From contig URLJ01000001.1 in assembly GCA_900548675.1 (NCBI GenBank), forward strand, positions 9,012-73,011: a stretch of DNA of 64,000 nt, given 5' to 3'. This document shows, piece by piece, positions 1-28,213 of this stretch. The notes below the pieces were generated by a model that saw only the letters and a program-made list of their open reading frames with translations, was not told where the DNA came from and did not search any database. Each line of letters opens with the position of its first letter. Positions within the stretch are counted from its first letter, which is position 1. Origin of the DNA: an uncultured Mollicutes bacterium. Lineage in GTDB: Bacteria; Bacillota_I; Bacilli_A; ML615J-28; CAG-313. A program made the position numbers and the translations under genes.

Positions 1-83
1 AGTAGAAAAGATGAGATGGGAGTTGGTGGCCAACTTCTTGCCCCCTTTTGTCAACGTTTTCAGCAAATTTTTGCTTAAAATAC

Positions 84-116
84 TTGCATTTTCCTAGCTT
101 TTGGGTTTATTATTAT
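84..116 (+). promoter_or_regulatory. Possible sigma70-like promoter (TTGCAT -35, AT-rich -10); first copy of the repeated AAATACTTGCATTTT element
   Basis: aaatacttgcatttt recurs at 77-91 and 203-217; spacing to a -10 is imperfect. Confidence 0.3.
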
Positions 117-207
117 ATTGTAAATAAGAAAAGGAGAGAAAAAGAGTAGGAAATGGGCTTGACAATAGCCAAAATATAATTTTTCTACATAAAATAATCA
201 AAAATAC

Positions 208-237
208 TTGCATTTTTCCTCCAAAGTGTTATATAAT
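208..237 (+). promoter_or_regulatory. sigma70-like promoter upstream of the split tRNA-Met
   Basis: TTGCAT, then 17-18 nt, then TATAAT (tgttatataat); about 40 nt upstream of the tRNA 5' end. Confidence 0.55.
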
Positions 238-284
238 ATATATATAAATGAAAGAAAGAGAAGAAAAAATACAATATCGCGGGA

Positions 285-876
<592 letters not shown>

Positions 877-997
877 AACCTGGAGGTCAGAGGTTCGAGT
901 CCTCTCCCCGCAACCACTAGTAGTCCACAGCTACAATAAATAAATGTGCAGAGCTAGCGGATGGCATATGCAGTTTCATAGAAAATCCGCACTATAT

Positions 998-1073
998 TGG
1001 GTTGTAGCTCAGCTGGTAGAGCGTTCGGCTGTTAACCGAAATGTCCTGGGTTCGAGTCCCAGCTTCCCAGCCA
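998..1073 (+). tRNA. tRNA-Asn(GUU)
   Basis: D-arm tagctcagctggtagagc, anticodon loop ctGTTaa, T-arm ctgggttcgagtcccag, CCA encoded; the acceptor stem has two U-U mismatches, so the 5' end is uncertain. Confidence 0.7.
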
Positions 1074-1076
1074 TAT

Positions 1077-1151
1077 GCTTGCGTGGCGCAATGGTAGCGC
1101 AACTGACTTGTAATCAGTAGGTTGTCAGTTCAACTCTGACCGCAAGCTCCA
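1077..1151 (+). tRNA. tRNA-Thr(UGU)
   Basis: Perfect acceptor gcttgcg/cgcaagc, anticodon loop ctTGTaa, T-arm gtcagttcaactctgac, CCA encoded. Confidence 0.85.
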
Positions 1152-1157
1152 ATAAAT

Positions 1158-1186
1158 TTGACTTTAATTTGAATTTTTGTTATAAT
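1158..1186 (+). promoter_or_regulatory. sigma70 promoter (TTGACT-17-TATAAT)
   Basis: ttgact, then ttaatttgaatttttgt, then tataat. Confidence 0.6.
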
Positions 1187-1283
1187 ATTATTATAAAAGA
1201 TAAGAAAAATAACAAAAAAGTAGGCGAAACCCTCGTAAAAATACTATCTCCCTTCTTTTTTCTAAAAATAATTATCAAAAATG

Positions 1284-1312
1284 TTGACAAAAACTTAAAA
1301 TTATGATATAAT
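1284..1312 (+). promoter_or_regulatory. Consensus sigma70 promoter (TTGACA-17-TATAAT)
   Basis: ttgaca, then aaaacttaaaattatga, then tataat. Confidence 0.7.
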
Positions 1313-1439
1313 TATTATAGAAACAAAGAAAAAATAACTTAATTTCGATATAAACGGTTAAAAAATAACCGAATATATAAAAATAAAATAGGGTCACGAC
1401 CTTAGCGTGGTTAGCCGAAAGGCAGAAAGGTGGTCAATT

Positions 1440-1772
1440 ATGGCTGAAAAAATAACAAAAGCAATGAACGATGGAGCAGCAAGAGCAAATGCAGTAGAAG
1501 TATTAGGATTAGGAAACTATGCAAAAGTTTCAAACACAGAATACGCATTAACAGTTAAAGATTTAGAAGGAAATGACAAAGTAGTAGTAGTTAAATTAAC
1601 TGTTCCAAAAGCTCAATTAGGGATAGACGAAATGGTTTCTAACTATGAAGCTGAAAGAGCTGACGTAGAAGCTAGAAAAGCTGAAAGAGAAGCAGAAAGA
1701 GCAGCTAAAAGAGCTGACAAAGAAGCTAAGAAAGCAGCTAAAGCTACAAAAGTAGAAGACGTAGAATTTTAG
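1440..1772 (+). CDS. Hypothetical protein (Lys/Glu/Ala-rich C-terminus)
   Basis: ORF with RBS aaaggtgg 9 nt upstream of ATG 1440; the track ORF starts at 1407. Confidence 0.6.
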   Translation: MAEKITKAMNDGAARANAVEVLGLGNYAKVSNTEYALTVKDLEGNDKVVVVKLTVPKAQLGIDEMVSNYEAERADVEARKAEREAERAAKRADKEAKKAAKATKVEDVEF

Positions 1773-1817
1773 TCAAAGCTGGGCATAGACCCAGCTATTT
1801 TATTCTAAAAGGGAGGT

Positions 1818-2192
1818 ATGCAAATGACTGAAAGAGAAAAAACCAATCAAATGCGCGAAGCCGAAATAAAAAGAATAAAGAAGTTCTATGAGGGTGAGGG
1901 GTTTATGGTAGAACGCATTTTGTCACAAAACTCACCATCAAGTTTAATTTTATTTACTGAGGATAACGAAAAGAATGAAAGATATATAGAAGTTAAGTTT
2001 ATAGTTAAAAAAGCTGAATACGAACCTGACGAAGATATTGATGCTTTCAAAATGGAAGTACAAACTCGCGCCGTTAAGAAAGTAAAAGCTGAGCTAAACA
2101 AACTTAATAAGAAAGACCGCGCAATAGCTGAACAAAAAGCTGAAGAAAGAGTTAAAGAACTTATAGAACAATACACAAATGGAGAGGAATAA
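1818..2192 (+). CDS. Hypothetical protein
   Basis: ORF with RBS aaagggagg. Confidence 0.6.
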   Translation: MQMTEREKTNQMREAEIKRIKKFYEGEGFMVERILSQNSPSSLILFTEDNEKNERYIEVKFIVKKAEYEPDEDIDAFKMEVQTRAVKKVKAELNKLNKKDRAIAEQKAEERVKELIEQYTNGEE

Positions 2193-2207
2193 CCTCTCCG
2201 TTTTTTA
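2181..2207 (+). terminator. Rho-independent terminator
   Basis: ggagagg-aataa-cctctcc followed by tttttt. Confidence 0.7.
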
Positions 2208-2302
2208 TGGGATGTGAGTTTGTCTTTTTGACAAACCACCATCAAGTCAAAATTCTACCGGGATTATCTCACAAATTTGCACAAAAGTCAAGTGCAAACA
2301 TA

Positions 2303-2334
2303 ACAAAAAAAAGAGAAACACTTTCGTGTTTCTC
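2303..2334 (-). terminator. Rho-independent terminator for the minus-strand block
   Basis: On the minus strand: gagaaacac-gaaa-gtgtttctc followed by an 8-U run. Confidence 0.7.
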
Positions 2335-2511
2335 GTCTCCGACCTAGCCCCAGTTTGCATGCCACTGGTTTAAGGGGTCAATGGCGTCTGCAGCTACCAA
2401 CACCTTTATACTCTCCCAGCTAGGAACTGCCTAATTGTGAACGTACGTGCTTACAGCTCAAAGCCTTATAGCGCGAGACACTTTCGAGCAGCTAGATATA
2501 TTGAACAGCTG

Positions 2512-2691
2512 TTAAGCTGGCTCAAACAATTGAATTGCACCTACCCCTTGGTCATCTTCATATACAGTTGCATAAGGTTTCTTATCAAGTCCCAAATCAG
2601 CTGCGCTGTCGGCGCCGAAACCTTCCAAAATTCTATTTTGAACATTCAAAGCCAAGTCTGCGAAGTATATTTGTTTCACTTTAACTCCCAT
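2512..2691 (-). CDS. Small hypothetical protein (59 aa), not in the ORF track
   Basis: Minus-strand ORF MGVKVKQIYFADLALNVQ... with strong RBS gggagg; it explains the spurious plus-strand ORF 2437-2730. Confidence 0.5.
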   Translation of the reverse strand: MGVKVKQIYFADLALNVQNRILEGFGADSAADLGLDKKPYATVYEDDQGVGAIQLFEPA

Positions 2692-2859
2692 AGCAACCTC
2701 CCTTATTATTATTTTATTATTATAATATAATTATATAATAATTTTAGATAAAAGTCAAGTTTTATATTTATTAAAATTTAAAAGAAAAATAGTTGATTTT
2801 TATAAGTGAGTGGTGCGCAGCACAATTCTCCTTGTCTTTGCAACTACCTCTCAAACCCT

Positions 2860-3430
2860 TACCTAGCAAAATTTTATCCACCACAAAAAATAGTATTATT
2901 CTTATTATAGTTATTCGTATTATAATTATTTATATTGTAGTTATAGGTGTAGTAATAGGGGTTATTATTATATTAGTTACTATTACTACTATTATAATTG
3001 TTCTTATTATAATTATTGTTATAGTATCTTTATTAGTGTTATTATTAATAGTATTGGTATTGGTATTATTAGTAGTATTATTATTACTACTATTATTATA
3101 TTAAAACTACTACTACTATTATTTTTATTATAACTATTATTACTACTATATTTTTTATTACTATAATTATTTTTATAATATTATTACTATTACTATTTTA
3201 TTATAGTTACTACTACTATTATTATTCTTACTATAATAATTACTACTATTATAATTGTTAGTATAAGTATTATTACTACTACTATTTTTTATAATATTAT
3301 TCTTATTATAAAAATTACTACTATTATTATTTTTATTATTACTATTTAATAGTATTACTACTATTATATTTATTTATTATTGTATTATTTATTCGTATTA
3401 TATTTTATTATATAATAAATAATAATATAA
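2860..3430. repeat. About 570-bp low-complexity tract of degenerate (TTA/TAT/TAC/TAG)n trinucleotide repeats
   Basis: Almost only A/T with periodic C/G; the ORFs here are low-complexity artefacts. Confidence 0.8.
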
Positions 3431-3570
3431 AAGAATAACAATAAAAAGAATAATTTAGTTCTCTTTTTGTTTAAAATGTAATAAAGGAAGAGGAAAACTC
3501 AAAAATTTTTCGTCTCCCTCTAAAAAAATTTTTTCAAAAGTTGTCTGTTTGCGCGAAAACCATAGACGAA

Positions 3571-4242
3571 CTAATAACCGCTATGGTCGTTATCCCAATA
3601 TTCGTCACTACTTTCATATTCGTCTTCCCAGCTATCGCCGCACTCTTCTGAATATGAACCATAATCGAATAATCCTGAACCACTTGATAAGCCAAAATCA
3701 AATACTTTCATTTTATTGTCAATAACTCCATAGTTTCCTCCTCTGACATCACATAATGCAATTTGATAACGTTCGTCTAAAATTGGTCTTAATGCTTCCA
3801 ACTCTGTTTCCATATCAGACACTAAGGCTTCATGTGATTCACAATCCATTATGTCGTCTTCTGCCATTTCTTGTTCAATTACAATTACACCATTCTTATC
3901 AAAATAATAATCTTTAATTTCAGCTATACAATTTATTTCTAAACCTTCGCTCATAAGCTCTTGAAATGCGTTCCATACAATAAGCTCTATTGCAAATTGA
4001 CCAAGTGGCCATACAAGTTGTGGTACTTCGTCATAAATTGAATATAAGAAACCACTTATTTCTTCCATTGTATCTGGGAAAGAAGTTGCTATACCACCTA
4101 AATTTTCAACTAAATATCTTCCTCTTGGTACTTTATAAACTATTCCATCTTTTACATATGCTTCTTTGCTTGCGCCTTGACCTAAGTATGTTGCCCCACA
4201 TAAGATTTCATCTACACTTTTATTTATTTGTCTAATTTTCAT
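3571..4242 (-). CDS. Protein-kinase-like protein with an acidic C-terminal tail
   Basis: Gly-rich loop LGQGASKEAY with Lys (VYKV), catalytic-loop-like LCDVRGGN, and DFG motif (VFDFG). Confidence 0.5.
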   Translation of the reverse strand: MKIRQINKSVDEILCGATYLGQGASKEAYVKDGIVYKVPRGRYLVENLGGIATSFPDTMEEISGFLYSIYDEVPQLVWPLGQFAIELIVWNAFQELMSEGLEINCIAEIKDYYFDKNGVIVIEQEMAEDDIMDCESHEALVSDMETELEALRPILDERYQIALCDVRGGNYGVIDNKMKVFDFGLSSGSGLFDYGSYSEECGDSWEDEYESSDEYWDNDHSGY

Positions 4243-4540: not shown

Positions 4541-5128
4541 AATTTCAACATTATAATCAATTTTAACTGTATTTGTTGGGACAACTAAAATTTGTCCTTT
4601 TTCTTTTGCATTTAATTCAATAATTTCGCCATATTCATGTCCCCATAACACATCTATCCAATTTGCTTTTCGTTGGCGTTTATCCATAATCTTTATTAAT
4701 TTTGGACTTTCTTCGTCCGTTTCTTTAATATAAATATTTTCACCTTGTATTGTCTGTAATTGTTTTCCATACTCAGTGTTAGCAAAAAATACATAATACA
4801 TTTCTTTCGTTGTTTCACTTGAGCCCGTTACAAAACCTGACCCCAATAGGAATGCGCCAGTTAAACTTGCATCTTCATATGTTTCAGTTTTAAATTCTAA
4901 ACCTGTAATTTCATATGCTGTTTCTTGAAATTCACTTTTAGTATCTTCACACGCATGATTTGCAATTGGCAATATAAGTAAGAATCCTGCTAACACTACG
5001 CATGCGCCCACAGCTATTTCCTCGTCCAACCAGTGAGCGATTAGTAAAGTAACAATGGTGACTACAATTATCATTATAATAAAATACAACATATTAAACC
5101 TCCTTATAAGTTTTATATAAACATTCAA
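4538..5128 (-). CDS. Hypothetical membrane protein
   Basis: N-terminal hydrophobic segments; the start may be the internal Met near 5092 to avoid overlap. Confidence 0.55.
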   Translation of the reverse strand: MNVYIKLIRRFNMLYFIIMIIVVTIVTLLIAHWLDEEIAVGACVVLAGFLLILPIANHACEDTKSEFQETAYEITGLEFKTETYEDASLTGAFLLGSGFVTGSSETTKEMYYVFFANTEYGKQLQTIQGENIYIKETDEESPKLIKIMDKRQRKANWIDVLWGHEYGEIIELNAKEKGQILVVPTNTVKIDYNVEI

Positions 5129-5783
5129 ATTTATTATTTAGAGGTATATCCAAATGCCAATGGCCAAAATACCATTTATCTATATTAACCATTTCATTTA
5201 TTGATTGAAGTCTACGTTGAGAATTGCTAATTTTAACTCCATTTATGTTTGAGAATACTGAAATTTGTGGAGTTATAGCAGCTGGACAATCATGTGATAG
5301 CATTATATCTATATGATTATTATCTCCTAAATTTCTTATAAAATGCCCTATATCAGTTGTAGTAATTTCTTCCTCTGGCCACCAACTAATTCCTTCTGTT
5401 CTATGCCATAAGTCTACCGAATTAGCTCCACCGCATACACCTATTCTTTTATTATTAATGTTATATACTTCACCTCTTAATAAGTGAATTACACCACTTG
5501 GTAATTTACCTGCGCGACCACCATTCCATTCAATAACCTCTTCTAATTCTCTAATTAAACGGAAATTTTCATGATTACCATCAACAAAAGCAACTGAAAA
5601 AGGTAAGTCTTCAATGATGCTAAAATTAAGTACAGTAGTTTTCTCATTCCAAATACAACCAAAATCACCTAAAACAATAACTAAATCATCTTTGGTAGCA
5701 TCTGGCAAATTGAAATTAAATAATCGTATTATATCACCGTGCAAATCACCTGTTATTATTATTCTATTTACTTTCTGTATCAT
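5094..5783 (-). CDS. Calcineurin-like metallophosphoesterase (Ser/Thr phosphatase family)
   Basis: Motifs GDLHG, GDFG, GNHE, and GHWH. Confidence 0.85.
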   Translation of the reverse strand: MIQKVNRIIITGDLHGDIIRLFNFNLPDATKDDLVIVLGDFGCIWNEKTTVLNFSIIEDLPFSVAFVDGNHENFRLIRELEEVIEWNGGRAGKLPSGVIHLLRGEVYNINNKRIGVCGGANSVDLWHRTEGISWWPEEEITTTDIGHFIRNLGDNNHIDIMLSHDCPAAITPQISVFSNINGVKISNSQRRLQSINEMVNIDKWYFGHWHLDIPLNNKFECLYKTYKEV

Positions 5784-8031: not shown

Positions 8032-8475
8032 TTAAATTAATAAGTCATAATTTAATTTTCCTTCTGAATTGATTATATTATAATTTCTTAATATTGTAGT
8101 TACTTCTTCAGGAGATGTTAAATAAGAGCATAATATTTGTATATCTTCTAATATTTCATGGACTTTTTCTTGTCGTCTTTCAATACTTTTTTTTGCTTCA
8201 TTTAACAAATGTTGGGTTGTCTCCGTATAAATATGGTCTAACGTTGTCCAAACAGATAGACTATCAAAATTTTCTTTTGATAAAGTCATATCACCATTTT
8301 TCTCCAATTCGTTATTTACTCCTTTTAATTCATTAATAAATAAATTTTTTGCATTGTTAAGAGCTCGTTGAATTATATCTGATTCTTTAATAGCTTTTAA
8401 TTGTTTGTCAGCTTGTTCTACAATTTTTTCATTCATTTTTTCTTCGTAGTTTTCTAAAAAAATTTTTATATCCAT
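8032..8475 (-). CDS. Hypothetical protein
   Basis: ORF. Confidence 0.55.
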   Translation of the reverse strand: MDIKIFLENYEEKMNEKIVEQADKQLKAIKESDIIQRALNNAKNLFINELKGVNNELEKNGDMTLSKENFDSLSVWTTLDHIYTETTQHLLNEAKKSIERRQEKVHEILEDIQILCSYLTSPEEVTTILRNYNIINSEGKLNYDLLI

Positions 8476-8708
8476 TATTTACCTCTTTGTTTTTTATTTT
8501 TTAAAAAAAGTATTAAAATAAAAAGTATTATAATTACAGATATACCTAAACTTATAAAAGTTGGCATCCATACCATCCACCAAGACCAATTAATTAAATT
8601 GGTTAATTTTAAAACTATAAAAACAACTTGTAAAATTGTAAAAATGCCAGGATTATTTATTTGTATTTTATTTGTATCTAACCATTCTATATTATTATTT
8701 TTCTTCAT
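8475..8708 (-). CDS. Small membrane protein
   Basis: Two hydrophobic segments. Confidence 0.45.
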   Translation of the reverse strand: MKKNNNIEWLDTNKIQINNPGIFTILQVVFIVLKLTNLINWSWWMVWMPTFISLGISVIIILFILILFLKNKKQRGK

Positions 8709-12858: not shown

Positions 12859-13002
12859 ATAAACAAAAAGAAACCCTCTGGTACAAACCAGAGGGTAATA
12901 TATGCTGGATTTTCTTTTATGTGAAAATCTAATATCCAGAGTTTTTTAGGCAGTTTGCTCCTATCTGCCACGGATTAGGCATATCTCTAACTCTAAACTT
13001 CG

Positions 13003-13075
13003 CCTAAGCCAGGACTCGAACCTGTATCTCTATATAAATAGCGCTCTAACCAATTAAGCTACATAAGCGAAGTGC
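13003..13075 (-). tRNA. tRNA-like gene, anticodon arm unresolved (possible degenerate tRNA)
   Basis: Minus-strand D-arm tagcttaattggttagagc and T-arm caggttcgagtcctgg; acceptor gcttatg/cttaggc extended by cttc/gaag; no clean anticodon stem found. Confidence 0.35.
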
Positions 13076-13219: not shown

Positions 13220-13570
13220 ATAAAGGTTGGCAAACATTTTAATTATATTCAGGAGAGTTTGCCCAAACATAACTCCCTAAGTTTGGTAAGGTTTTTCTTA
13301 GCTGGAATATGAATGATAACCTTTAACATTCTTACCAGCATTGATAGCCCCAAACAGCTATCTTAGCCAAGGAGGTCTTCCCGAAGGATTACTCCCTAAG
13401 CTATGGTATAAGAAATAGCTTTAGCTGTCTCCGTTTGGTTTATCTAACAGCATATAGCCCAGGCTCACGGAATAAAACTATTTCATACTGGCAAAACAAC
13501 AGTAAGACTATGAATGCCTCTTTCACTCCTACTATTCTTACTTTATAGGCGGGCCATAGATTGTTGTTTC

Positions 13571-14340: not shown

Positions 14341-14600
14341 TTACCTTTATATATTCTATACCATTCATAGTAATCTGGCTCGCCTGGATAATTCCAAGCT
14401 TTATGAGAATGACAATATTCTTTCCAAGTTGAAGAAAAACTATAATCATAAATAAAATCCCAAGGCTCAACTAATTTGCGATAAGCCTTACCATTTGGTA
14501 TATCTTTTGTTTTTCTTACGACTTTATTACAATATCGTTTTCCCCATTTGCTACTATCTCTATCCTTACAAAAAGGATATTTTTTATAACTTCTACTCAT
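14337..14600 (-). CDS. Hypothetical protein
   Basis: ORF. Confidence 0.5.
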   Translation of the reverse strand: MSRSYKKYPFCKDRDSSKWGKRYCNKVVRKTKDIPNGKAYRKLVEPWDFIYDYSFSSTWKEYCHSHKAWNYPGEPDYYEWYRIYKGK

Positions 14601-14671
14601 AATTTACCTCCTATGAGGTTTTACCTCATTAGAAAGTAACTCTGTTCTTATTCATAAGACCAACTCCTTAT

Positions 14672-14923
14672 TTAATTAAATGGTATTAAATCAGAAGATA
14701 AAATAGTGCTATCAACTATTTTTAATGTACTGCACGTTGGGCATTGTACTTTTTTATTTAATCTTTTCGTATGCCACTGATTCATATATAAAGACGAATC
14801 AAAAGTAGTTTCTTCATCAATTTCTTCTATAATATCTTCTTTATCGTATTCAAAAATACAACCACATTTATAACAATTTAATCTATTACTTGGTTTAATA
14901 TATCCTTCTTTTATAACTTTCAT
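14672..14923 (-). CDS. Zinc-ribbon hypothetical protein
   Basis: CYKCGC ... CPTC cysteine pairs. Confidence 0.5.
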   Translation of the reverse strand: MKVIKEGYIKPSNRLNCYKCGCIFEYDKEDIIEEIDEETTFDSSLYMNQWHTKRLNKKVQCPTCSTLKIVDSTILSSDLIPFN

Positions 14924-15282
14924 ACAATTCCTTCTTTCTTATTAATTTGTTTTGGCTGGCGCGTTGCAGCGCCAGATAAGAGTTTATTACCACATACGGT
15001 CTAGTACTAACCTGCTATTGTCCCCGTTACGAGCGTAAGTTTTGGGTTGTTTATGGATTGCGGCAAGCCCTCTCGCCAGAGCCCTCTTATTCACCGCCTT
15101 TGAGTACTTTTACTTGCTATCTTACGACATTAGTATCCCATTACTAGATACCCGACTGATAGATACCATTTGGAGCTGACTTGGGTTTTTATCGGCGTCA
15201 ACAAGTCTGTAACCCCATAATCATAAAAAACAGTTTGGAAATAGCTTCAATCCACTTATTTTCTATTTAGCCGACAGTCTGC
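14924..15282 (-). other. GC-enriched ORF-free block of unknown function (candidate structured RNA)
   Basis: No ORF above 60 aa on either strand; local GC well above the window average; no tRNA resolvable. Confidence 0.3.
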
Positions 15283-15359
15283 TGGTAGCGACAGTTGGAC
15301 TCGAACCAACGACCTACTGGGTATGAACCAGTTGCACTAGCCAACTGTGCTATGTCGCT
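15283..15359 (-). tRNA. tRNA-Met(CAU) elongator-type (or Ile-lysidine type)
   Basis: Acceptor agcgaca/tgtcgct, anticodon loop ttCATac, T-arm gttggttcgagtccaac, CCA encoded. Confidence 0.8.
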
Positions 15360-15468
15360 ATATAGGTGGTGTTCGAGGATTTAAGTACTATTACCTCGTA
15401 TCGGCTCCCTCGCGCCGCACATTTGTTGGTCATTTATTATACGCGACAACTGTGAACTCTCGCGTAGC

Positions 15469-15543
15469 TGGCACCGGCGCTAAGACTCGAACTCAGACAA
15501 ACAGTTTTGGAGACTGTTGTGCTACCGATTACACTACACCGAT
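15469..15543 (-). tRNA. tRNA-Trp(CCA)
   Basis: Anticodon loop ctCCAaa, stem acagt/actgt, T-arm ctgagttcgagtcttag, CCA encoded; the acceptor has two G-U pairs. Confidence 0.7.
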
Positions 15544-15611
15544 ATAGACTACCAGGCTTAACTTATAATGCGCCAAACCTGTTTGCAACTTCCAATGCGC
15601 ATATAATTAAA

Positions 15612-15784
15612 CAGCTTTCTTCCAATTAAAACCGAAGGCGCGTTTGCCAGTATTAATAGAATTAACTATTAACATTTGAACTTTCCAGTCATCCATTTTT
15701 GTATCAATAGATGCAGAAGCCTCCTTAATTGAATTGAATTGTGCTATTTCTTTTTTATCTTTTACTTGTTTAATTTTTTCCATT
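15612..15784 (-). CDS. Small hypothetical protein (about 57 aa), not in the ORF track
   Basis: aaaggtggttatata-ATG gives MEKIKQVKDKKEIAQFNSIKEAS...; lies between tRNAs. Confidence 0.35.
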
Positions 15785-15808
15785 ATATAACCACCTTTCT
15801 AAATTGAT

Positions 15809-15884
15809 TGGAGCACGATGCGAGACTCGAACTCGCCCCATCTGCTTGGAAGGCAGGAATGCTAGCCACTGACACCAATCGTGC
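15809..15884 (-). tRNA. tRNA-Gly(UCC)
   Basis: Acceptor gcacgat/atcgtgc, anticodon loop ctTCCaa, T-arm gcgagttcgagtctcgc, CCA encoded. Confidence 0.75.
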
Positions 15885-15899
15885 AAATAAAGGTTAGTA

Positions 15900-16742
15900 C
15901 TTTTGATAAAGCAGACTGTACCAAACTGCTTTTGTAATAGCTATCGTTGAGAGCCTTTACCTTCCTGCATCTTCACTCAAAGGTGAGCCGCGTACACCAT
16001 CTCTCAATATTAAACAGGGTCTATTGTTCCACTATTACATCAATAATCTTACATATCTCAGTTTAGTTTGTACCTCGTTACTCTTTATGAATAAGTATTT
16101 TCATACTGGAAGATTACAGAATACTTCCAACTAACAGTTCAACTCTGTAAGATAATTCACCTATCTTCATCTGGGAATATTTACTGTTAGAGCCTAAGCC
16201 ACGACATTTTCAACCCAACTCCAACTCGTCTTGCAATTAGCAAGTTTGCCAGAGCGTCCGCTTAGCTTCACTTTCTCACGACTAAACTCATCTTGAAACC
16301 AGACCTCTAATATATTTCCACCGAATTTCACTTGGAGCCACTTCCAACTCCTTTGGTCTGTGCCTTACGCCGTTGATAGCGCATTCAGCCATAATGACTA
16401 TTGTTCTTGTACTTTTTTGAGCTACCCGATTTCCACCACGAGGAGGTAAGTACACTGGAAATCATATTTGGTTTGGTGGGGCGGCACTCCCACATCTCTT
16501 ATAAGCCCTAAATCTTACCTATAATGGATTTTAACCATTCCTCCACAGTTGCCCGGCTGTCACGGACTCGAACCGTTCGATATTAGGGTTGATAGCTGCC
16601 TTTCTATCCTCAAACCTGCAATAGGCCGTTGCTGGTTATAACTTTTTCGTATCGCCGACACTCTCTCGCTACAAGAGCCGCTTGCCTAAATTCACTATTA
16701 GGTCTGTTACAGACTGTTTCGCATTTCACCTATCGCTATGTA
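15900..16742 (-). other. About 840-bp GC-enriched ORF-free block; candidate structured ncRNA or degenerate tRNA region
   Basis: No ORF above 20 aa with an RBS on the minus strand; a T-loop-like ggttcgagtcc (reverse complement at 16565-16575) lacks a matching acceptor. Confidence 0.3.
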
Positions 16743-16955
16743 TTAAACAGAAAAATAACTAACTGAGCAATTAGGATATTCTGTTTTTAATTGATTAGTA
16801 CGTTCTTTTGCTATTGGCGCACTTTCTACATATTCACTATAAATTATTTTATAAGGAACATCAGAATTTATGCGTCCTCCTTCTGCTACTATTATTTTTT
16901 GTCTTATTTTCTTTTCTACTTTCTTTTCTACAACATTAGATTTTTTTACTGCCAT
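16743..16955 (-). CDS. Hypothetical protein
   Basis: ORF. Confidence 0.5.
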   Translation of the reverse strand: MAVKKSNVVEKKVEKKIRQKIIVAEGGRINSDVPYKIIYSEYVESAPIAKERTNQLKTEYPNCSVSYFSV

Positions 16956-16981
16956 ATTAAATACTTCCTTTCTTTTTATAT

Positions 16982-17326
16982 TTATTGTGGTATTTTCAAT
17001 TTTTTAATTACTTCAACTTTTGCTATAAATTTGCCAAGTTTAAAAGTTATTTTACCGTTATTTACTGTTAAAATTGTACCTTCTTTAAAGTTATTTATTA
17101 TATTTTGAATAATTTTATTTTTAAGACTATCGGTTGTAAGTAAATTATTGTCCTCTAACAAAGCTTTTGCTTCAGTAAATTTTATTTCATAAACTTTGTC
17201 ATTCACAGTAATTAAATTATAAATTCCATTACCTGTCATTGAGTATTTTCTTTGATAAGTATTAGGAAAATATTTTTTTAAAAACTCACCAAACTTATAA
17301 TCATATTCCCAAAAATATTCTATCAT
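16982..17326 (-). CDS. Hypothetical protein
   Basis: ORF. Confidence 0.55.
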   Translation of the reverse strand: MIEYFWEYDYKFGEFLKKYFPNTYQRKYSMTGNGIYNLITVNDKVYEIKFTEAKALLEDNNLLTTDSLKNKIIQNIINNFKEGTILTVNNGKITFKLGKFIAKVEVIKKLKIPQ

Positions 17327-17357
17327 TCAAATCACTTTCCTTTCTTTCTATAATATA

Positions 17358-17386
17358 ATTATACATTAATTTTTATAAAAAGTCAA
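17358..17386 (-). promoter_or_regulatory. Conserved early promoter cassette (minus)
   Basis: ttgact-17-tataat-tatattataga. Confidence 0.7.
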
Positions 17387-17389
17387 ATT

Positions 17390-17566
17390 TGCGAAACCTC
17401 ACATCACGCGGAGTGCCTTTCCTCTCAGCCACCGCCCAGTTTCCCAGGCAGGAAGGAGTCGAACCTTCGTCCGCAACTTGATAAAAGAAAGTATATACTT
17501 TTGCAACGTTTTAGAGTGTTGCTCCTCTGCGCTGGTATTATATATATTAAATATTATATAATCAAT
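17390..17566 (-). other. tRNA-like structured element downstream of the HNH gene; not resolvable as an intact tRNA
   Basis: T-arm gaaggttcgactccttc with a 3' acceptor-like ctgcctg but no complementary 5' strand; several hairpins (gcaac/gttgc, aaagtatatacttt). Confidence 0.3.
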
Positions 17567-18097
17567 TTAAATTAAAGCCCATTCTTCGTCTGTATACTGT
17601 TTTATTTCTGATTTTTTAGATGGTAATTTTTCTGAAATGCACCATTTTCTAATAGCATTATCACTAACTTCAAACATTTTTCCAATTAGTACAAAAGAAT
17701 TGTTTCTTATTAAATTTTTTAATTCTTCACGAGAAGGTCGATTTGCAACCTTTCTACGGTATAAACTACTACATTTAAAACATCTAATATTTTCAGAATT
17801 AATGATTGTCCCACAGTCGCAACATTTATTTGGCGGACTTATATAATAATCGTTTTCTTTTTCAAATTTTCCAGTTTGATGAAATCTAGTATGGTCTCCT
17901 TTTGTTTTAAAAACCATTAAATTAGAAGGATTATTATTGCTTCTATTTTCATCTATGTGATGAACTACTTCTTCCGAAGTTAAATTTCTACCAAGCATTT
18001 TTTCAGCAACTAAAATATGGTCATAAACACAACCAGAATTACCTATTGTTCTAGAATGATTAGGACACCAACTAGCATCATAGCCATTTATATTCAT
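17567..18097 (-). CDS. HNH homing endonuclease (HNH_3-type) embedded in the tRNA array
   Basis: EEVVHHIDENRSNNNPSNLMVF motif and C-terminal zinc-ribbon cysteines. Confidence 0.8.
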   Translation of the reverse strand: MNINGYDASWCPNHSRTIGNSGCVYDHILVAEKMLGRNLTSEEVVHHIDENRSNNNPSNLMVFKTKGDHTRFHQTGKFEKENDYYISPPNKCCDCGTIINSENIRCFKCSSLYRRKVANRPSREELKNLIRNNSFVLIGKMFEVSDNAIRKWCISEKLPSKKSEIKQYTDEEWALI

Positions 18098-21271: not shown

Positions 21272-22789
21272 TTATAATCTAACAACATCATATATTGAAT
21301 CATTTAGTGTTTTTAACATTGTGTTATATGGGTCTTCATCCACCGCCATTAATACGCTTCTAAAAGCTGAAACAGATTGCCCACTTACCATTGCAATATT
21401 TTTTTGTTCGCATACTCCGTGATATACATCTTGTCTACTATCTACGTTCCAATATATTATTTTTGGAATAATATATCCGTGACGTTGAAATCTCATTGCA
21501 ATTTCATCCATTAGTTTGTTTTGTCTTGCAATTTCAGTATTTCCATACATTGATGAATAACGTGTTCCAGTTGCTCCATCAAATTCCATATCTGAAATTA
21601 TTACAATCGCTTTAGGCATATCTTCTTGTGTTAATTTGTTGTTAATAGCAGTTTGTAACACTAAATTAAACGCAGCTTCTATATTAGTATTGTCGACAAT
21701 TGCTGGAATGCTTCTAACTTTTTCAGCTAAATTTAAACCTTTTAACTCTACAAAATTTGGTTTTGATGAGAAAGTCATAAAATTATTATGCCAAGGTCCA
21801 TTATTTCTTTCAGCAAAGTAAATTGCTAATCCTATTGAAGTACAAATTGGTCTTCCACTCATTGAGCCAGAAGTGTCTGCCATTACTAATATATTGTTGT
21901 TTCCTTCAATATAATTTGGTAATGCTTTCCATTGTTCTTCAAGTACTTCATCCCATTTGTTAAAACTAAAATTACTGCTTCTCCAATTTTCTGACAATCC
22001 TGCGGCTTCCATTATATCATAAGGATATAATGTTTTTGCATTAATTTTTTCTTCTCCTGATTTTACTTTTTCAATGTACTCTTTAAATTTGATTAAATTA
22101 TGCTCTCCAAAAGCATTTCTATATTTTTTCATTGCCAATGAAGGTACTTCATTGTACACAATTTTATCCCATTCATTTTTGCTCATATTTCTTTCAACTA
22201 TATTAAGTTGTTTTCTTAATTTTGATAAAATTTGTCTATATTCTTTATATGAATAATGTAATTTTTTTGCAGTTAATTTACCTAATTTAGCGCTTTCGAT
22301 TGACACACCAGATGTTGACTTTAACCATTTTGCTAATAAACTAATTTGTTTACCTGCCTCAAGCGCAGCTAAATCAGCTTCCAATTGATTTTTTATAACA
22401 TCAAATGCTAAATCTTCCAATGGTGTTTTTACAAATTCATATAAATCATCCCATCTACCAAAAATAGGCACTAAATTAATATTTTTTGCCATAACTTCTT
22501 GATGATAGTTTGCTAAATATTTTATTAAAATACGAAATGTTCTTCTTTCTCCAAGTCCACCTCTAATATTTCTTGCATAAAATAACATTTTCATAGCTAA
22601 TAGTTGGTCTTCGGCAAAAGCTTTAATAAATTTCGTTTCAATTTCTTGTGAAGGTCTTGTTCTTAACGCACCAATTACTGCGAATAAATCTAATAAATCT
22701 GAATTTGTTGTTCTATATGCTATCGCTCCATTTTCTGTTAATGTTTCGTTTGTTTCATTTTTAATACTTTTTATAAAATTTTCACTCAT
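21272..22789 (-). CDS. von Willebrand factor A (vWA) domain protein with a long helical N-terminal region; possibly Ro60/TROVE-like
   Basis: MIDAS motif ILVMADTSGSMSG around residue 305, followed by IVIISDMEFDG; the N-terminal 300 aa are unassigned. Confidence 0.6.
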   Translation of the reverse strand: MSENFIKSIKNETNETLTENGAIAYRTTNSDLLDLFAVIGALRTRPSQEIETKFIKAFAEDQLLAMKMLFYARNIRGGLGERRTFRILIKYLANYHQEVMAKNINLVPIFGRWDDLYEFVKTPLEDLAFDVIKNQLEADLAALEAGKQISLLAKWLKSTSGVSIESAKLGKLTAKKLHYSYKEYRQILSKLRKQLNIVERNMSKNEWDKIVYNEVPSLAMKKYRNAFGEHNLIKFKEYIEKVKSGEEKINAKTLYPYDIMEAAGLSENWRSSNFSFNKWDEVLEEQWKALPNYIEGNNNILVMADTSGSMSGRPICTSIGLAIYFAERNNGPWHNNFMTFSSKPNFVELKGLNLAEKVRSIPAIVDNTNIEAAFNLVLQTAINNKLTQEDMPKAIVIISDMEFDGATGTRYSSMYGNTEIARQNKLMDEIAMRFQRHGYIIPKIIYWNVDSRQDVYHGVCEQKNIAMVSGQSVSAFRSVLMAVDEDPYNTMLKTLNDSIYDVVRL

Positions 22790-27649: not shown

Positions 27650-28213
27650 TTAATTACAACTTTTTAAATTCCAATCTTCTGCCCAACAAATGTTTTCATG
27701 AACATACTTATCTTTGTAAATTTCTTCAATCTCTGCAAGTGTAACAGGTTCATAATTAACACATTCTACACTTACACAGTACATATTTTTATGTCTTACA
27801 TATTTATTATGAATATGTCCATAAATCATTTTCGCGCCATAATACATACCTGCATAATCGATAATTGGATAATGAGAAAGTATAATTTGCTGTTTATCCT
27901 CATTTACTTGAAGATAATCACATACTTTTTCAAAACACTCATCAAAATCGCGCTGACCAGCATACTTATCGTGATTCCCTTTAATTAAAATTTTCTTTCC
28001 ATTTAATTGTTTCAAAATTTTAATTGCGTCTTGTTTACTCATTTTAAAACAAAAATCACCTAAAATATATACTGTATCTTCGTTTGTTACTTTATTATTC
28101 CATTTTTCAATTAATTGTTTATTCATATCTTCTGTATTTTCAAAAGGTCTATTACAAATTTGAATAATACGTTCATGACCAAAATGCGGGTCTGCTATAA
28201 AAAAGTTAGCCAT
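27650..28213 (-). CDS. Calcineurin-like metallophosphoesterase
   Basis: Motifs ADPHFGH, ILGDF, GNHD, and GHIHN. Confidence 0.85.
   Translation of the reverse strand: MANFFIADPHFGHERIIQICNRPFENTEDMNKQLIEKWNNKVTNEDTVYILGDFCFKMSKQDAIKILKQLNGKKILIKGNHDKYAGQRDFDECFEKVCDYLQVNEDKQQIILSHYPIIDYAGMYYGAKMIYGHIHNKYVRHKNMYCVSVECVNYEPVTLAEIEEIYKDKYVHENICWAEDWNLKSCN

Follow-up and report, generated by a model that had tools for sequence, protein, structure and literature searches.

Large folded phage RNAs of the ROOL (RF03087) and GOLLD (RF01998) type, which cluster in tRNA islands, are among the main unexplained objects of bacterial RNA biology. ROOL is about 590 nt long and GOLLD more than 800 nt; both are multi-helix noncoding RNAs of phage tRNA arrays, and their defining structural property is oligomerisation into a homo-oligomeric cage. 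RNA ends can also be made by self-cleavage or by tRNA-processing enzymes, as in glmS and in excision by RNase P. Minimal HDV-like ribozymes of the drz/theta class lack P4, and members of 56 nt cleave in vitro; in phages, theta ribozymes serve in the 3'-end maturation of tRNAs (Kienbeck et al. 2024, PMC10879173). The same study counted theta ribozymes as tRNA-associated when they cut no more than 5 nt to either side of a tRNA end, reported a 140-fold enrichment of DRB0094-family RNA ligase in theta-ribozyme phages, and reported 526 theta-type ribozymes as "isolated" in non-coding DNA. In the motif description of Weinberg et al. (2017, PMC5737381), skipping-rope RNAs have a Rho-independent terminator at the 3' end and an associated DUF3800-related protein domain nearby.

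The locus described here lies in a window of 64,000 nt (the whole stretch of DNA that was analysed) and consists of two blocks between tRNAs and small ORFs, with all RNA parts of both blocks on the minus strand:

14924-15282: block 1, from the start codon of ORF 14672-14923 (minus strand) to tRNA-Met 15283-15359 (minus strand)
15900-16742: block 2, from tRNA-Gly 15809-15884 (minus strand) to the stop codon of ORF 16743-16955 (minus strand)

An earlier note on this DNA had described the blocks as ORF-free, GC-richer than their surroundings and apparently constrained, and these points are confirmed. The coordinates were exact, the longest ORF in either block has 55 aa, and the GC content is 0.421 in block 1 and 0.419 in block 2, compared with 0.21–0.30 in seven flanking ORFs and 0.299 in the whole window. 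The cores are 79–99% identical across at least 13 distinct relatives among gut-phage contigs, and the neighbouring genes are less conserved. The relatives comprise about 30 partial loci, with parts of their genomes examined. In isolate phage genomes, a distant BLAST of 14600-17000 and a megablast of 1-25000 returned tRNA matches only and found no cultured relative, and two 20-mers derived from the core matched only the L027 contig in IMG/VR.

Conserved blocks in a phage rich in tRNAs, a kind that sometimes uses alternative genetic codes, might be decayed or recoded protein genes, or might act at the DNA level, as an origin or packaging site for instance. However, no reading frame is kept open across the relatives, the variable columns show no third-codon-position bias (27/23/20), and GC lies 12–20 points above that of coding DNA. 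The compensatory changes, and the many G·U pairs that never vary, are in addition specific to a minus-strand RNA, and we give this reading almost no credence. The thermodynamic stability of the blocks is not unusual compared with shuffled sequence (MFE z-scores of −0.12 and +0.67), so the evidence for structure is covariation, not folding energy. On covariation, the earlier proposal of structured RNAs is strongly supported: the blocks are constrained structured RNAs, neither junk nor genes.

Along block 2, segA is followed by a skipping-rope RNA, an HDV-like ribozyme, a fused large domain and a poorly conserved tail, and then by tRNA-Gly. The features, all on the minus strand, are:

16622-16735: segA, a closed structured module of ~114 nt with the closing helix AUAGG/CCUAU
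16468-16618: skipping-rope RNA (RF02924) with three stems at a junction; its variable middle arm (the "rope") has an insertion of 73 nt
16562-16576: T-arm-like hairpin ACGG-UUCGAGU-CCGU in this variable arm, as read from the sequence
16407-16463: predicted minimal HDV-like self-cleaving ribozyme without P4, 57 nt
16041-16403: large structured domain (~365 nt, about 18 helices), fused to the ribozyme
16403-16391 with 16052-16041: long-range closing helix of the large domain
15885-16040: tail of 156 nt, lineage-specific, that separates the large RNA from tRNA-Gly
15809-15884: tRNA-Gly(UCC)

The Rfam scan that the earlier note had called for placed the skipping-rope match over its gathering score and left the large domain, segA and the block 1 RNA as three RNA modules without a match at E≤10. 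The candidate of a new phage ncRNA from that note fits at least these three modules, but part of block 2 is a skipping-rope RNA and a minimal HDV-like ribozyme.

Across 17 sequences, drawn from no fewer than 13 different contigs, the large domain keeps 79–99% identity. RNAalifold predicted 113 pairs in it, 49 of them compensatory. For the ribozyme and domain together, 118 pairs were scored, and they were paired in 98.9% of cells over the 17 sequences. The alignment with related phages, also proposed in the earlier note, revealed covariation in this large RNA as well as in block 1 (see below): 53 of the 118 pairs had changed on both sides, compared with 27.6±2.7 in shuffles (0/500) and 7–13 in slid controls; the kinship of the sequences (79–99% identity) means that the shuffle controls somewhat overstate significance, which the slid-partner controls partly answer. 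Many G·U pairs are invariant and possible only in a minus-strand RNA, and the runs UCAACG, UGAAA, AUAUAUUAGA, GGUUG and GAGUUG are invariant and unpaired. The domain carries no coding signal, and a search of 50,697 phage records gave no match to it.

The large RNA is kept where its neighbours are not. In L051 and L052 it is 79–80% identical to that of the window, with 0/8 tested flanking proteins shared, and in L053 it is 80% identical while the ORF114 protein is only 50% identical; this argues for selection on the RNA. It lies between tRNAs at every locus examined. In L051, L052, L043 and L049 it is flanked by two tRNAs and ends 7–45 nt ahead of the next one. The 156-nt tail is common only to L056 (99%) and L055 (82%), and in the other relatives the next tRNA follows 7–50 nt beyond the closing helix.

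The setting is that of ROOL, and a strongly diverged ROOL or GOLLD was considered. More distant relatives that share ORF114 (L028–L035) carry ROOL in their tRNA arrays (~300 bits) and lack the RNA described here, which is likewise large and multi-helical. The ROOL score in these relatives indicates that the model is sensitive in this phage group. Even so, the ROOL and GOLLD models gave no match in 14600-17600 at E≤10 with permissive filters. An HMM built from the relatives' ROOL copies found no match in the window, the reverse search was likewise empty, and the two HMMs match disjoint sets of loci. The RNA here is also smaller, at 423 nt, and has a predicted self-cleaving ribozyme as its 5' module. 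That the RNA is a diverged ROOL or GOLLD is therefore very improbable on these data. The analogy that we propose rests instead on the genomic niche, on size class and on the two RNAs being mutually exclusive (among ~30 partial loci), and not on homology or a shared property. Oligomerisation defines ROOL and GOLLD, whereas the present RNA is known from its sequence and offers as a hint the palindrome in L4 of the ribozyme.

The 57 nt at the head of the large RNA can be drawn as a nested double pseudoknot with all four helices (P1, P2, P3 and P1.1) and with cleavage at the 5' end of P1. Its parts, all on the minus strand, are:

16463-16457 with 16434-16428: P1
16453-16448 with 16414-16409: P2
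16447-16445 with 16437-16435: P3
16443-16442 with 16427-16426: P1.1
UCCUCGU: L3
16423-16420: L4 palindrome AGCU
16419: putative catalytic C, first position of J4/2
U16464/G16463: predicted cleavage site

RF02682 aligned to it over its full length with 24.4 bits, below the gathering score of 44, and its 16-nt P4 was deleted down to 2 nt; RF01787 (drz-agam-1) scored 11.1 bits against a threshold of 37, with P2 and P3 aligned in the same layout. The fold was thus picked up independently by both models. None of the HDV families RF02682, RF01787 and RF00094 reached its gathering threshold; Rfam has no model for P4-less HDV-like ribozymes. C16419 aligns to the C of GCUAAG in RF02682 and may be the catalytic residue.

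P1 is built from at least six different sequences among the relatives and P2 from five, and pairing is kept in each. By formal count, changes on both sides were found in 5/7 pairs of P1 and 6/6 pairs of P2; MAFFT misplaced gaps in P1 and in helix Hb of block 1, and these were scored with anchored scripts plus an alignment-based counter. P3, L3, P1.1 and the putative catalytic C are invariant in the 17 sequences save for one U-to-A change in L3 of L043, so covariation neither supports nor contradicts P3 and P1.1. In all lineages the L4 tetranucleotide reads as a palindrome, and where it differs it has become another palindrome (AGCU, CGCG, AAUU, CAUG); no contiguous complementary partner for it was found within the RNA.

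Compared with theta and minimal HDV-like ribozymes of the drz-Mtgn type (PMC10879173), the element shares the nested double pseudoknot, the size of about 56–57 nt without P4, the cytosine that opens J4/2, the location in tRNA regions of gut Caudoviricetes, and a cleavage site, here predicted, just 3' of a structured RNA. The phage also codes for an RNA ligase that resembles the DRB0094 family (TIGR02306, E 1.7e-14). This likeness is one of a fold drawn from the sequence, not of the published descriptor, and cleavage activity is predicted. It differs in that the ribozyme is fused on its 3' side to the ~365-nt structured domain in 17/17 sequences, in that its upstream partner is mostly not a tRNA, and in that L4 is always palindromic.

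Because theta ribozymes mature phage tRNA 3' ends (PMC10879173), the ribozyme could instead be a stand-alone device of this type for 3' maturation of the upstream RNA, with the ~365 nt downstream being an unrelated RNA or leader. The predicted cut lies 9 nt past a tRNA-Ser in L051 and 4 nt past the skipping-rope RNA in the window, and skipping-rope RNAs normally require a terminator to form their 3' end. However, the upstream neighbour varies: it is a skipping-rope RNA in the window, L044, L037 and L053, a plain hairpin in L027 and an AT-rich spacer in L049, and both conserved skipping-rope hairpins are missing from L027 and L043. At no locus does the predicted site fall within ±5 nt of a tRNA 3' end, L051 being the closest. 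The downstream domain, in contrast, follows in every ribozyme sequence (17/17) after a fixed 5-nt linker. Since this domain is constant, the upstream neighbour variable, and conservation among relatives begins 2–3 nt upstream of the predicted cut, we assign the ribozyme to the downstream RNA. A purely stand-alone device appears doubtful to us. Maturing an upstream 3' end and heading a downstream RNA are compatible, and the explanation that we favour holds both.

The skipping-rope RNA upstream of the ribozyme scored 45.7 bits, where 36.7 is the gathering score, and covers model positions 1–80 of 80, and matches of 58–66 bits were found at the equivalent place in L044, L037, L038 and L042. As in the motif description (PMC5737381), two similar conserved hairpins surround a variable middle arm in a phage/Firmicutes context. 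It departs from the motif in two respects. An HDV-like ribozyme starts 4 nt downstream in place of the usual terminator, and no Rho-independent terminator is present at the 3' end. The cargo of the variable arm differs among relatives, being a T-arm-bearing element of 73–90 nt, the ~110-nt segA or a short hairpin. An adjacent DUF3800-like gene was not seen at the locus, and the flanking ORFs (70, 114 and 58 aa) had no Pfam or PHROG match. A pattern scan gave 16 other skipping-rope loci, unrelated and without similarity to the window flanks; the ribozyme L3 motif occurs in only 1/16 of them, on the opposite strand, so the two elements are not generally linked.

The segA module is 93% identical in L055, 88% in L053 and 82% in L027. 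Its closing helix covaries in 4/4 sequences (GAUAGG/CCUAU, AAUAGG/CCUAUU, CCUAAG/CUUAGG and GGUGAG/CUCACC), and in L053 the module is placed within the skipping-rope RNA as its variable arm.

The T-loop-like sequence GGTTCGAGTCC that the earlier note had picked out is real and belongs to the hairpin 16576-16562 (minus strand) in the rope. The hairpin is kept in L055 and L027, and the rope of L037 contains a comparable one, UUGG-UUCAAUC-CCAG. The hairpin lies in a tRNA array, and one suggestion, named in part in the earlier note, is that software has missed tRNA genes of an unusual make in these blocks, be they intron-containing, split or circularly permuted; GOLLD RNAs are known to embed tRNAs (PMC12990946), and an odd tRNA- or tmRNA-like fragment lies nearby at 17390-17566. 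This suggestion is largely refuted. ARAGORN and the Rfam tRNA model were empty in both blocks even at E≤10, the hairpin itself included. The T-arm falls within the variable arm, and the skipping-rope match around it is full-length. No cloverleaf appears in the covariation-backed fold of either the large RNA or the block 1 RNA (215–423 nt). Nor did the blocks resolve into ordinary tRNAs, the outcome that the earlier note had set against its own proposal, as no tRNA was called inside them. We hold unusual tRNA genes to be highly improbable.

Block 1 contains a second, separate structured RNA, with the following features on the minus strand:

14956-15171: block 1 RNA, ~215 nt, pseudoknotted, ending in the hairpin 14975-14956
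15172-15282: poorly conserved spacer from tRNA-Met to the RNA core, alignable only with L056 and L055

The RNA is 77–98% identical in L056, L054, L048, L042, L038, L037, L036, L055, L043 and L044, and some relatives have an optional insertion of roughly 35–65 nt. The helices that covary are the long-range and pseudoknot helices: Hc (AGUACU/AGUACU, GGUACU/AGUACC, GGCAUU/AAUGCC), Hd (AUAAGAG/CUCUUAU, AUAAGAA/UUCUUAU, AUAAAAG/CUUUUAU) and Hb (GGUAUC/GAUACU, GCCUAA/UUAGG). Changes on both sides were found in 21 of 50 pairs, compared with 8.7±2.0 in shuffles (0/500) and 1–5 in slid controls.

The earlier note had also named ORF-less group I introns, and group I or II introns, or another kind of self-splicing insertion in the array, would suit a phage of this group: a group I intron is present in the array of L034 (10588-10786, 52.4 bits), and homing endonuclease genes (HNH, GIY-YIG) lie nearby. 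The scan that detected the L034 intron gave no Intron_gpI (RF00028) or group II match in the blocks at E≤10. No split host gene surrounds the blocks; their neighbours are complete tRNAs and ORFs that differ between relatives, and the sole catalytic motif found is HDV-like, which cleaves without splicing. The chance that the blocks are introns is accordingly very slight.

Two further sites on the minus strand bear on how the array may be expressed:

17358-17386: promoter-like site TTGACT-17-TATAAT upstream of ORF 16982-17326, a consensus match only
12861-12896: intrinsic terminator at the distal end of the array, read from the sequence as ACCCUCUGG-UUUGUA-CCAGAGGGU and then a run of U

The promoter-like site matches 11/12 consensus positions and is a candidate for the start of the transcript carrying both blocks; the same element, of ~50 nt, is repeated several times in the relatives' arrays. 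The terminator is strong and is conserved in L043 and L027, and no minus-strand terminator-like site was found from 17600 to 14500.

These features suggest the following sequence of events, in which both blocks would be RNA genes within the minus-strand tRNA array. One long precursor with tRNAs and small ORFs would probably run from the promoter near 17386-17358 to the terminator at 12896-12861. The block 2 part would fold as successive modules, with the ribozyme joined to the ~365-nt domain by the 5-nt linker. Self-cleavage at U16464/G16463 would detach the upstream RNA. The 3' end of the skipping-rope RNA would thereby be defined and carry a 2',3'-cyclic phosphate instead of the motif's usual terminator, and the ~423-nt downstream RNA would begin with a 5'-OH enclosed by the ribozyme fold. 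In cutting at the next tRNA for 5' processing of tRNA-Gly, RNase P would trim the 3' side of the ~423-nt RNA. The released RNA may then act during infection as a stable, tightly folded ncRNA and fill the ROOL/GOLLD niche of phage tRNA islands with an unrelated sequence, and downstream of tRNA-Met block 1 would supply another RNA, pseudoknotted, ~215 nt long and independent of the first. The sequences themselves show the conservation, the covarying secondary structures, the HDV-like architecture, the layout of the locus and the lack of a coding signal. What we infer is co-transcription, self-cleavage, trimming by RNase P, stability of the RNA and any function, and we consider the explanation as a whole probable. 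As in glmS, other ribozyme-defined ends and tRNA-flanked RNase P excision, the ends proposed here would come from self-cleavage (5'-OH) and tRNA-processing enzymes, not from a promoter and terminator. The difference is that the ribozyme here would stay on a non-coding product, and ligand control is not implied.

The locus adds three RNA modules without Rfam matches to the phage repertoire, with solid comparative support, and the ribozyme predicted to be built into one of them gives a precise prediction of its 5' end. Some of the 526 "isolated" theta-type ribozymes (PMC10879173) could plausibly have a comparable role and may head structured RNAs rather than mature tRNAs. For the skipping-rope RNA, we propose a 3' end set by a ribozyme rather than a terminator, alongside a variable arm with exchangeable cargo. 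Related phages with either ROOL or this RNA offer a natural comparison for roles during infection. Since L4 is always palindromic, it would allow a 4-bp intermolecular duplex, and a dimer or a larger complex might then be the working form of the RNA, as for ROOL and GOLLD. That the 423-nt RNA represents a new class of large phage RNA, matured wholly by RNA catalysts (its own ribozyme for the 5' end, RNase P for the 3' end) and self-associating, is a tentative idea that we think possible but rather unlikely. In a wider and likewise tentative form of this idea, an HDV-like ribozyme, a structured RNA and a tRNA may make up a general cassette in the tRNA arrays of gut phages.

Some minor observations were made alongside. 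A gene with DUF2828 and DUF7788 (21272-22789) had prompted the idea of a Y RNA/Ro system. This amounted only to co-occurrence within one phage family, the YrlA match (20.5 bits) lay elsewhere in the window, and the idea was dropped. The left end of the window (1-3600) was scanned for further RNAs and yielded two tRNAs and nothing else. Finally, the ROOL-bearing relative L028 contains, at 8311-8659, an unrelated example of an HDV-like ribozyme, a structured RNA and a tRNA arranged as a cassette.

The two GC-rich blocks without ORFs in the tRNA array form a chain of structured RNAs, of which two belong to known families and three match no Rfam family. The window is AT-rich phage DNA (29.9% GC), with 17 tRNAs and a tmRNA in a long minus-strand array. 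Both blocks fit exactly between annotated features, and block 2 contains five successive minus-strand parts.

Features of the region (window positions)
14924-15282, block 1, between the start of the ORF at 14672-14923(-) and tRNA-Met
15171-14956 (-), conserved part of the block 1 RNA, 40-110 nt past a tRNA in all relatives
15900-16742, block 2, between tRNA-Gly and the stop codon of the ORF at 16743-16955(-)
16735-16622 (-), segA, closed module of about 114 nt
16618-16468 (-), skipping-rope RNA, RF02924, full-length match, 45.7 bits
16463-16407 (-), HDV-like ribozyme, four nt past skipping-rope
16420-16423 (-), ribozyme L4 tetranucleotide, replacing P4
16403-16041 (-), large domain, roughly 18 helices, with several unpaired runs invariant
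16040-15885 (-), tail, 156 nt, only in the window's closest relatives, followed by tRNA-Gly
12861-12896 (-), strong intrinsic terminator at the distal array end, 9-bp GC-rich stem and U run, conserved in L027 and L043
9806-11080 (-), RNA ligase-like protein, 424 aa

As the earlier note had described, the blocks are GC-rich (0.42 compared with 0.21-0.30 in seven flanking ORFs) and carry no protein genes: the longest internal ORF is 55 aa and no frame is open across relatives. Codon periodicity is also absent at variable positions (27/23/20 by codon position). The T-loop-like GGTTCGAGTCC is present at 16576-16562(-), and the T-arm-like hairpin belongs to a 73-nt insertion in the middle arm of skipping-rope. 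The suspected tRNA oddity gave way to the chain of structured RNAs. Among the proposed candidates, a new phage ncRNA holds for three modules, and tRNAs and group I introns were dropped. Unusual thermodynamic stability, if implied, was not seen (MFE z-scores -0.12 and +0.67). Comparison with Rfam placed two modules in known families and left three without a match, and comparison with relatives revealed compensatory changes in segA, the ribozyme, the large domain and the block 1 RNA.

No isolate phage resembling the region was found. Relatives were traced in public assemblies through an invariant 26-nt pattern and two neighbouring proteins, of 70 and 114 aa, and they fall into three groups. The first consists of near-identical contigs (L017-L026, L056). 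The second is a graded series with RNA identity of 79-93% (L027/L036, L037-L044, L048-L055, L057), whose sources are human gut, sheep colon and MAGs with the label Bacilli or Clostridium. The third (L028-L035) is more distant and has only the 114-aa protein in common, at 40-46% identity. L055 and L056 are two contigs of one sheep-colon MAG, 'Bacilli bacterium RGIG5418', and carry two variants of the phage region, with large RNAs 93% and 99% identical to that of the window, respectively. This suggests two related phages binned together, or mis-binning; as a pointer to the host, the MAG is a weak hint.

The HDV-like ribozyme consists of P1 (GAUUUCC/GGAAAUC), P2 (GUACUU/AAGUAC), P3 (ACC/GGU), L3 (UCCUCGU), P1.1 (CC/GG) and an A-rich J4/2 with cytosine 16419 at its start, and it lacks P4. 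The Rfam model of the F. prausnitzii HDV ribozyme aligned end to end with P4 deleted, at 24.4 bits (cut-off 44), and the drz-agam-1 model aligned P2 and P3, so the window ribozyme lies under the score thresholds of the Rfam HDV families. In every structural feature that can be tested, its architecture and size are those of the P4-less minimal HDV-like class. The theta ribozymes of gut phages, members of this class, have a length of 56 nt and in vitro activity (PMC10879173). Across 17 sequences, P1 occurs as GAUUUCC/GGAAAUC, GACUUC/GAAGUC, GGCUUC/GAAGUC, GACCUU/AAGGUC, AGAAUAC/GUAUUCU, GAAGUUC/GAACUUC and GAAACAC/GUGUUUU, and P2 as GUACUU/AAGUAC, GUACUAU/AUAGUAC, GUACCU/AGGUAC, GAUAUUC/GAAUAUC and GUAACUA/UAGUUAC. 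In a formal count, 5 of the 7 pairs in P1 and all 6 in P2 changed on both sides. The window copy is farther from any tRNA end than the ±5 nt that defines tRNA-associated theta ribozymes. Kienbeck et al. reported "isolated" theta ribozymes in non-coding DNA and gave no explanation for them (PMC10879173); the window copy may correspond to these.

The L4 tetranucleotide is palindromic in 17/17 sequences: AGCU in 13, CGCG in L052, AAUU in L049 and L050, and CAUG in L051, the other palindromes being reached by three separate double changes. No other contiguous complementary segment was found within the RNA. Within a single strand, a 4-nt palindrome has no way of self-pairing. The simplest reading is a contact between two molecules, and L4 may be a dimerisation site, a prediction from a small sample of sequences.

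The large domain follows the ribozyme after a 5-nt linker and is closed by a long-range helix of 12 bp (16403-16391 with 16052-16041). RNAalifold predicted 113 pairs, and compensatory changes occur in 49. In a pair count of 118 pairs, ribozyme included, 98.9% of cells were paired, compared with 88.9% in shuffles and 34-43% with slid partners. Both sides had changed in 53 pairs, compared with 27.6±2.7 in shuffles (0/500 reached 53) and 7-13 with slid partners. The many invariant G·U pairs assign the structure to the minus-strand RNA. The large domain had no Rfam match at E≤10.

Among relatives, the conserved stretch runs from 2-3 nt before the predicted cut to the closing helix. This unit of ribozyme and domain is constant and its surroundings are variable; it is preceded by skipping-rope in most loci, by a plain hairpin in L027 and by an AT-rich spacer in L049. 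Its place in the array is one of three: it lies after ORF70, or is flanked by tRNA-Asp and tRNA-Ala or by tRNA-Ser and tRNA-Lys. In L051, it begins 9 nt past tRNA-Ser(GCU) and stops 7 nt short of tRNA-Lys. L051 and L052 share 0/8 tested flanking proteins with the window, yet their RNA is 79-80% identical. The unit is kept while flanks and positions change, and the ribozyme thus belongs to the downstream RNA. In these sequence comparisons, the unit of ribozyme and domain behaves like a cassette, with strong purifying selection acting on it. An architecture of ribozyme, structured RNA and tRNA was not described in the literature searched. L028 (8311-8659) shares this layout with the window, but its sequence is unrelated: a different HDV-like ribozyme with a full P4 hairpin (RF02682, 24.5 bits) directly follows a promoter-like TTGATATAAT, and then come about 265 nt of GC-rich sequence without an Rfam match and a tRNA. 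The same ribozyme type occurs in L029-L035, at CCTCCNCGNGG sites.

The skipping-rope match exceeds the RF02924 gathering score of 36.7; the copies in relatives score 58-66 bits and carry other cargo or a short arm. Published skipping-rope RNAs are closed by a Rho-independent terminator (PMC5737381), whereas the window copy has none (minus strand, 17600-14500) and is a new family member with a changed 3'-end strategy. The segA closing helix covaries in 4/4 available versions. SegA is free-standing in the window, L055 and L027; in L053 (8385-8185(-), compared with 16735-16468 of the window), it forms the variable arm of skipping-rope rather than lying upstream of it, so segA is an independent, movable module. 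L027 retains the cargo hairpin without the two conserved hairpins of skipping-rope, and the motif is entirely absent from L043. RNA cargo thus seems to be exchangeable, with the "rope" as its docking site.

The block 1 RNA has nested helices and two covarying long-range helices that form pseudoknots. The first occurs as AGUACU/AGUACU, GGUACU/AGUACC and GGCAUU/AAUGCC, and the second as AUAAGAG/CUCUUAU, AUAAGAA/UUCUUAU and AUAAAAG/CUUUUAU. Both sides had changed in 21 pairs, compared with 8.7±2.0 in shuffles (0/500) and 1-5 in slid controls; the paired fraction of 86% was lowered by MAFFT misaligning a terminal hairpin. The small ORF after this RNA differs between relatives, which argues against a gene-specific leader. 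The block 1 RNA had no Rfam match. None of the three modules without a family (segA, large domain, block 1 RNA) is a tRNA, group I intron, ROOL or GOLLD; no match was found in Rfam 15 and no description in the literature searched. The Rfam group I intron model is sensitive in this phage group, since it detected an intron in the tRNA array of L034 (10588-10786, 52.4 bits).

With the observed folds, conservation, HDV-like architecture and layout, the following processing is proposed. The array would be one transcription unit, from the promoter-like site at 17386-17358 (11/12 consensus positions, the element being repeated in relatives' arrays) to the intrinsic terminator at 12896-12861; no minus-strand terminator was found between 17600 and 14500. 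The ribozyme would cut between U16464 and G16463, so that skipping-rope would end in a 2',3'-cyclic phosphate and a 423-nt RNA (ribozyme and large domain) would begin with a 5'-OH folded into P1. The 3' side would be trimmed by RNase P, cutting at the tRNA that follows. Handling of such ends by the phage would fit its RNA ligase-like protein, which resembles the DRB0094 family (TIGR02306, E 1.7e-14, below the family cut-off; PHA02142 OB-fold domain), since this family of RNA ligases is reported to be 140-fold enriched in theta-ribozyme phages (PMC10879173). Two metallophosphoesterases (5094-5783 and 27650-28213) could also act on RNA ends.

In the weakest step, the released RNA would be a stable non-coding RNA in the niche of ROOL and GOLLD, large RNAs of phage tRNA islands; the basis is this niche and mutual exclusivity in partial loci. 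The arrays of L028-L035 contain ROOL (285-302 bits) and lack the 423-nt RNA, and HMMs of the two RNAs matched disjoint sets of loci. ROOL directly follows a tRNA-Trp homologue in L028-L035 (e.g., L028 15262-15853), and three of these arrays contain RAGATH-33 RNA (e.g., L028 12982-13106); neither was found in the window or its closer relatives.

A 505-aa protein with DUF2828 and DUF7788 (21272-22789(-)) is conserved in every close relative, encoded a few kb upstream of these RNAs; it was considered as their possible RNA-binding partner, and no evidence for this was found. Beside an HNH endonuclease gene, a GC-rich piece (17390-17566(-)) has a T arm, a 3' acceptor-like strand (GAAGGUUCGACUCCUUCCUGCCUGG) and a hairpin with CUCUAAA in its loop, and matches the tmRNA 3' part weakly (E 0.065). 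L027, L055 and L056 share this piece, which has a promoter-like site ahead (17565-17537) and is probably the "split tRNA" of the earlier note. About 88 nt of non-coding sequence (13404-13491(-)) has no Rfam match and may form a further small structured RNA; it is shared at 93% identity with L038, L042 and L048, in each of which it comes directly after a tRNA. At 13001-13068(-), the Rfam tRNA model scored 42.5 bits and ARAGORN called no gene. The first 3.5 kb of the window is plus-strand, with GC above the remainder; at 210-315(+), with a weak S774 sRNA match and no tRNA called, 37-44 nt are shared without mismatch with tRNA-Met genes from unrelated phages. The window start may mark the boundary of a module or the remnant of an attachment site.
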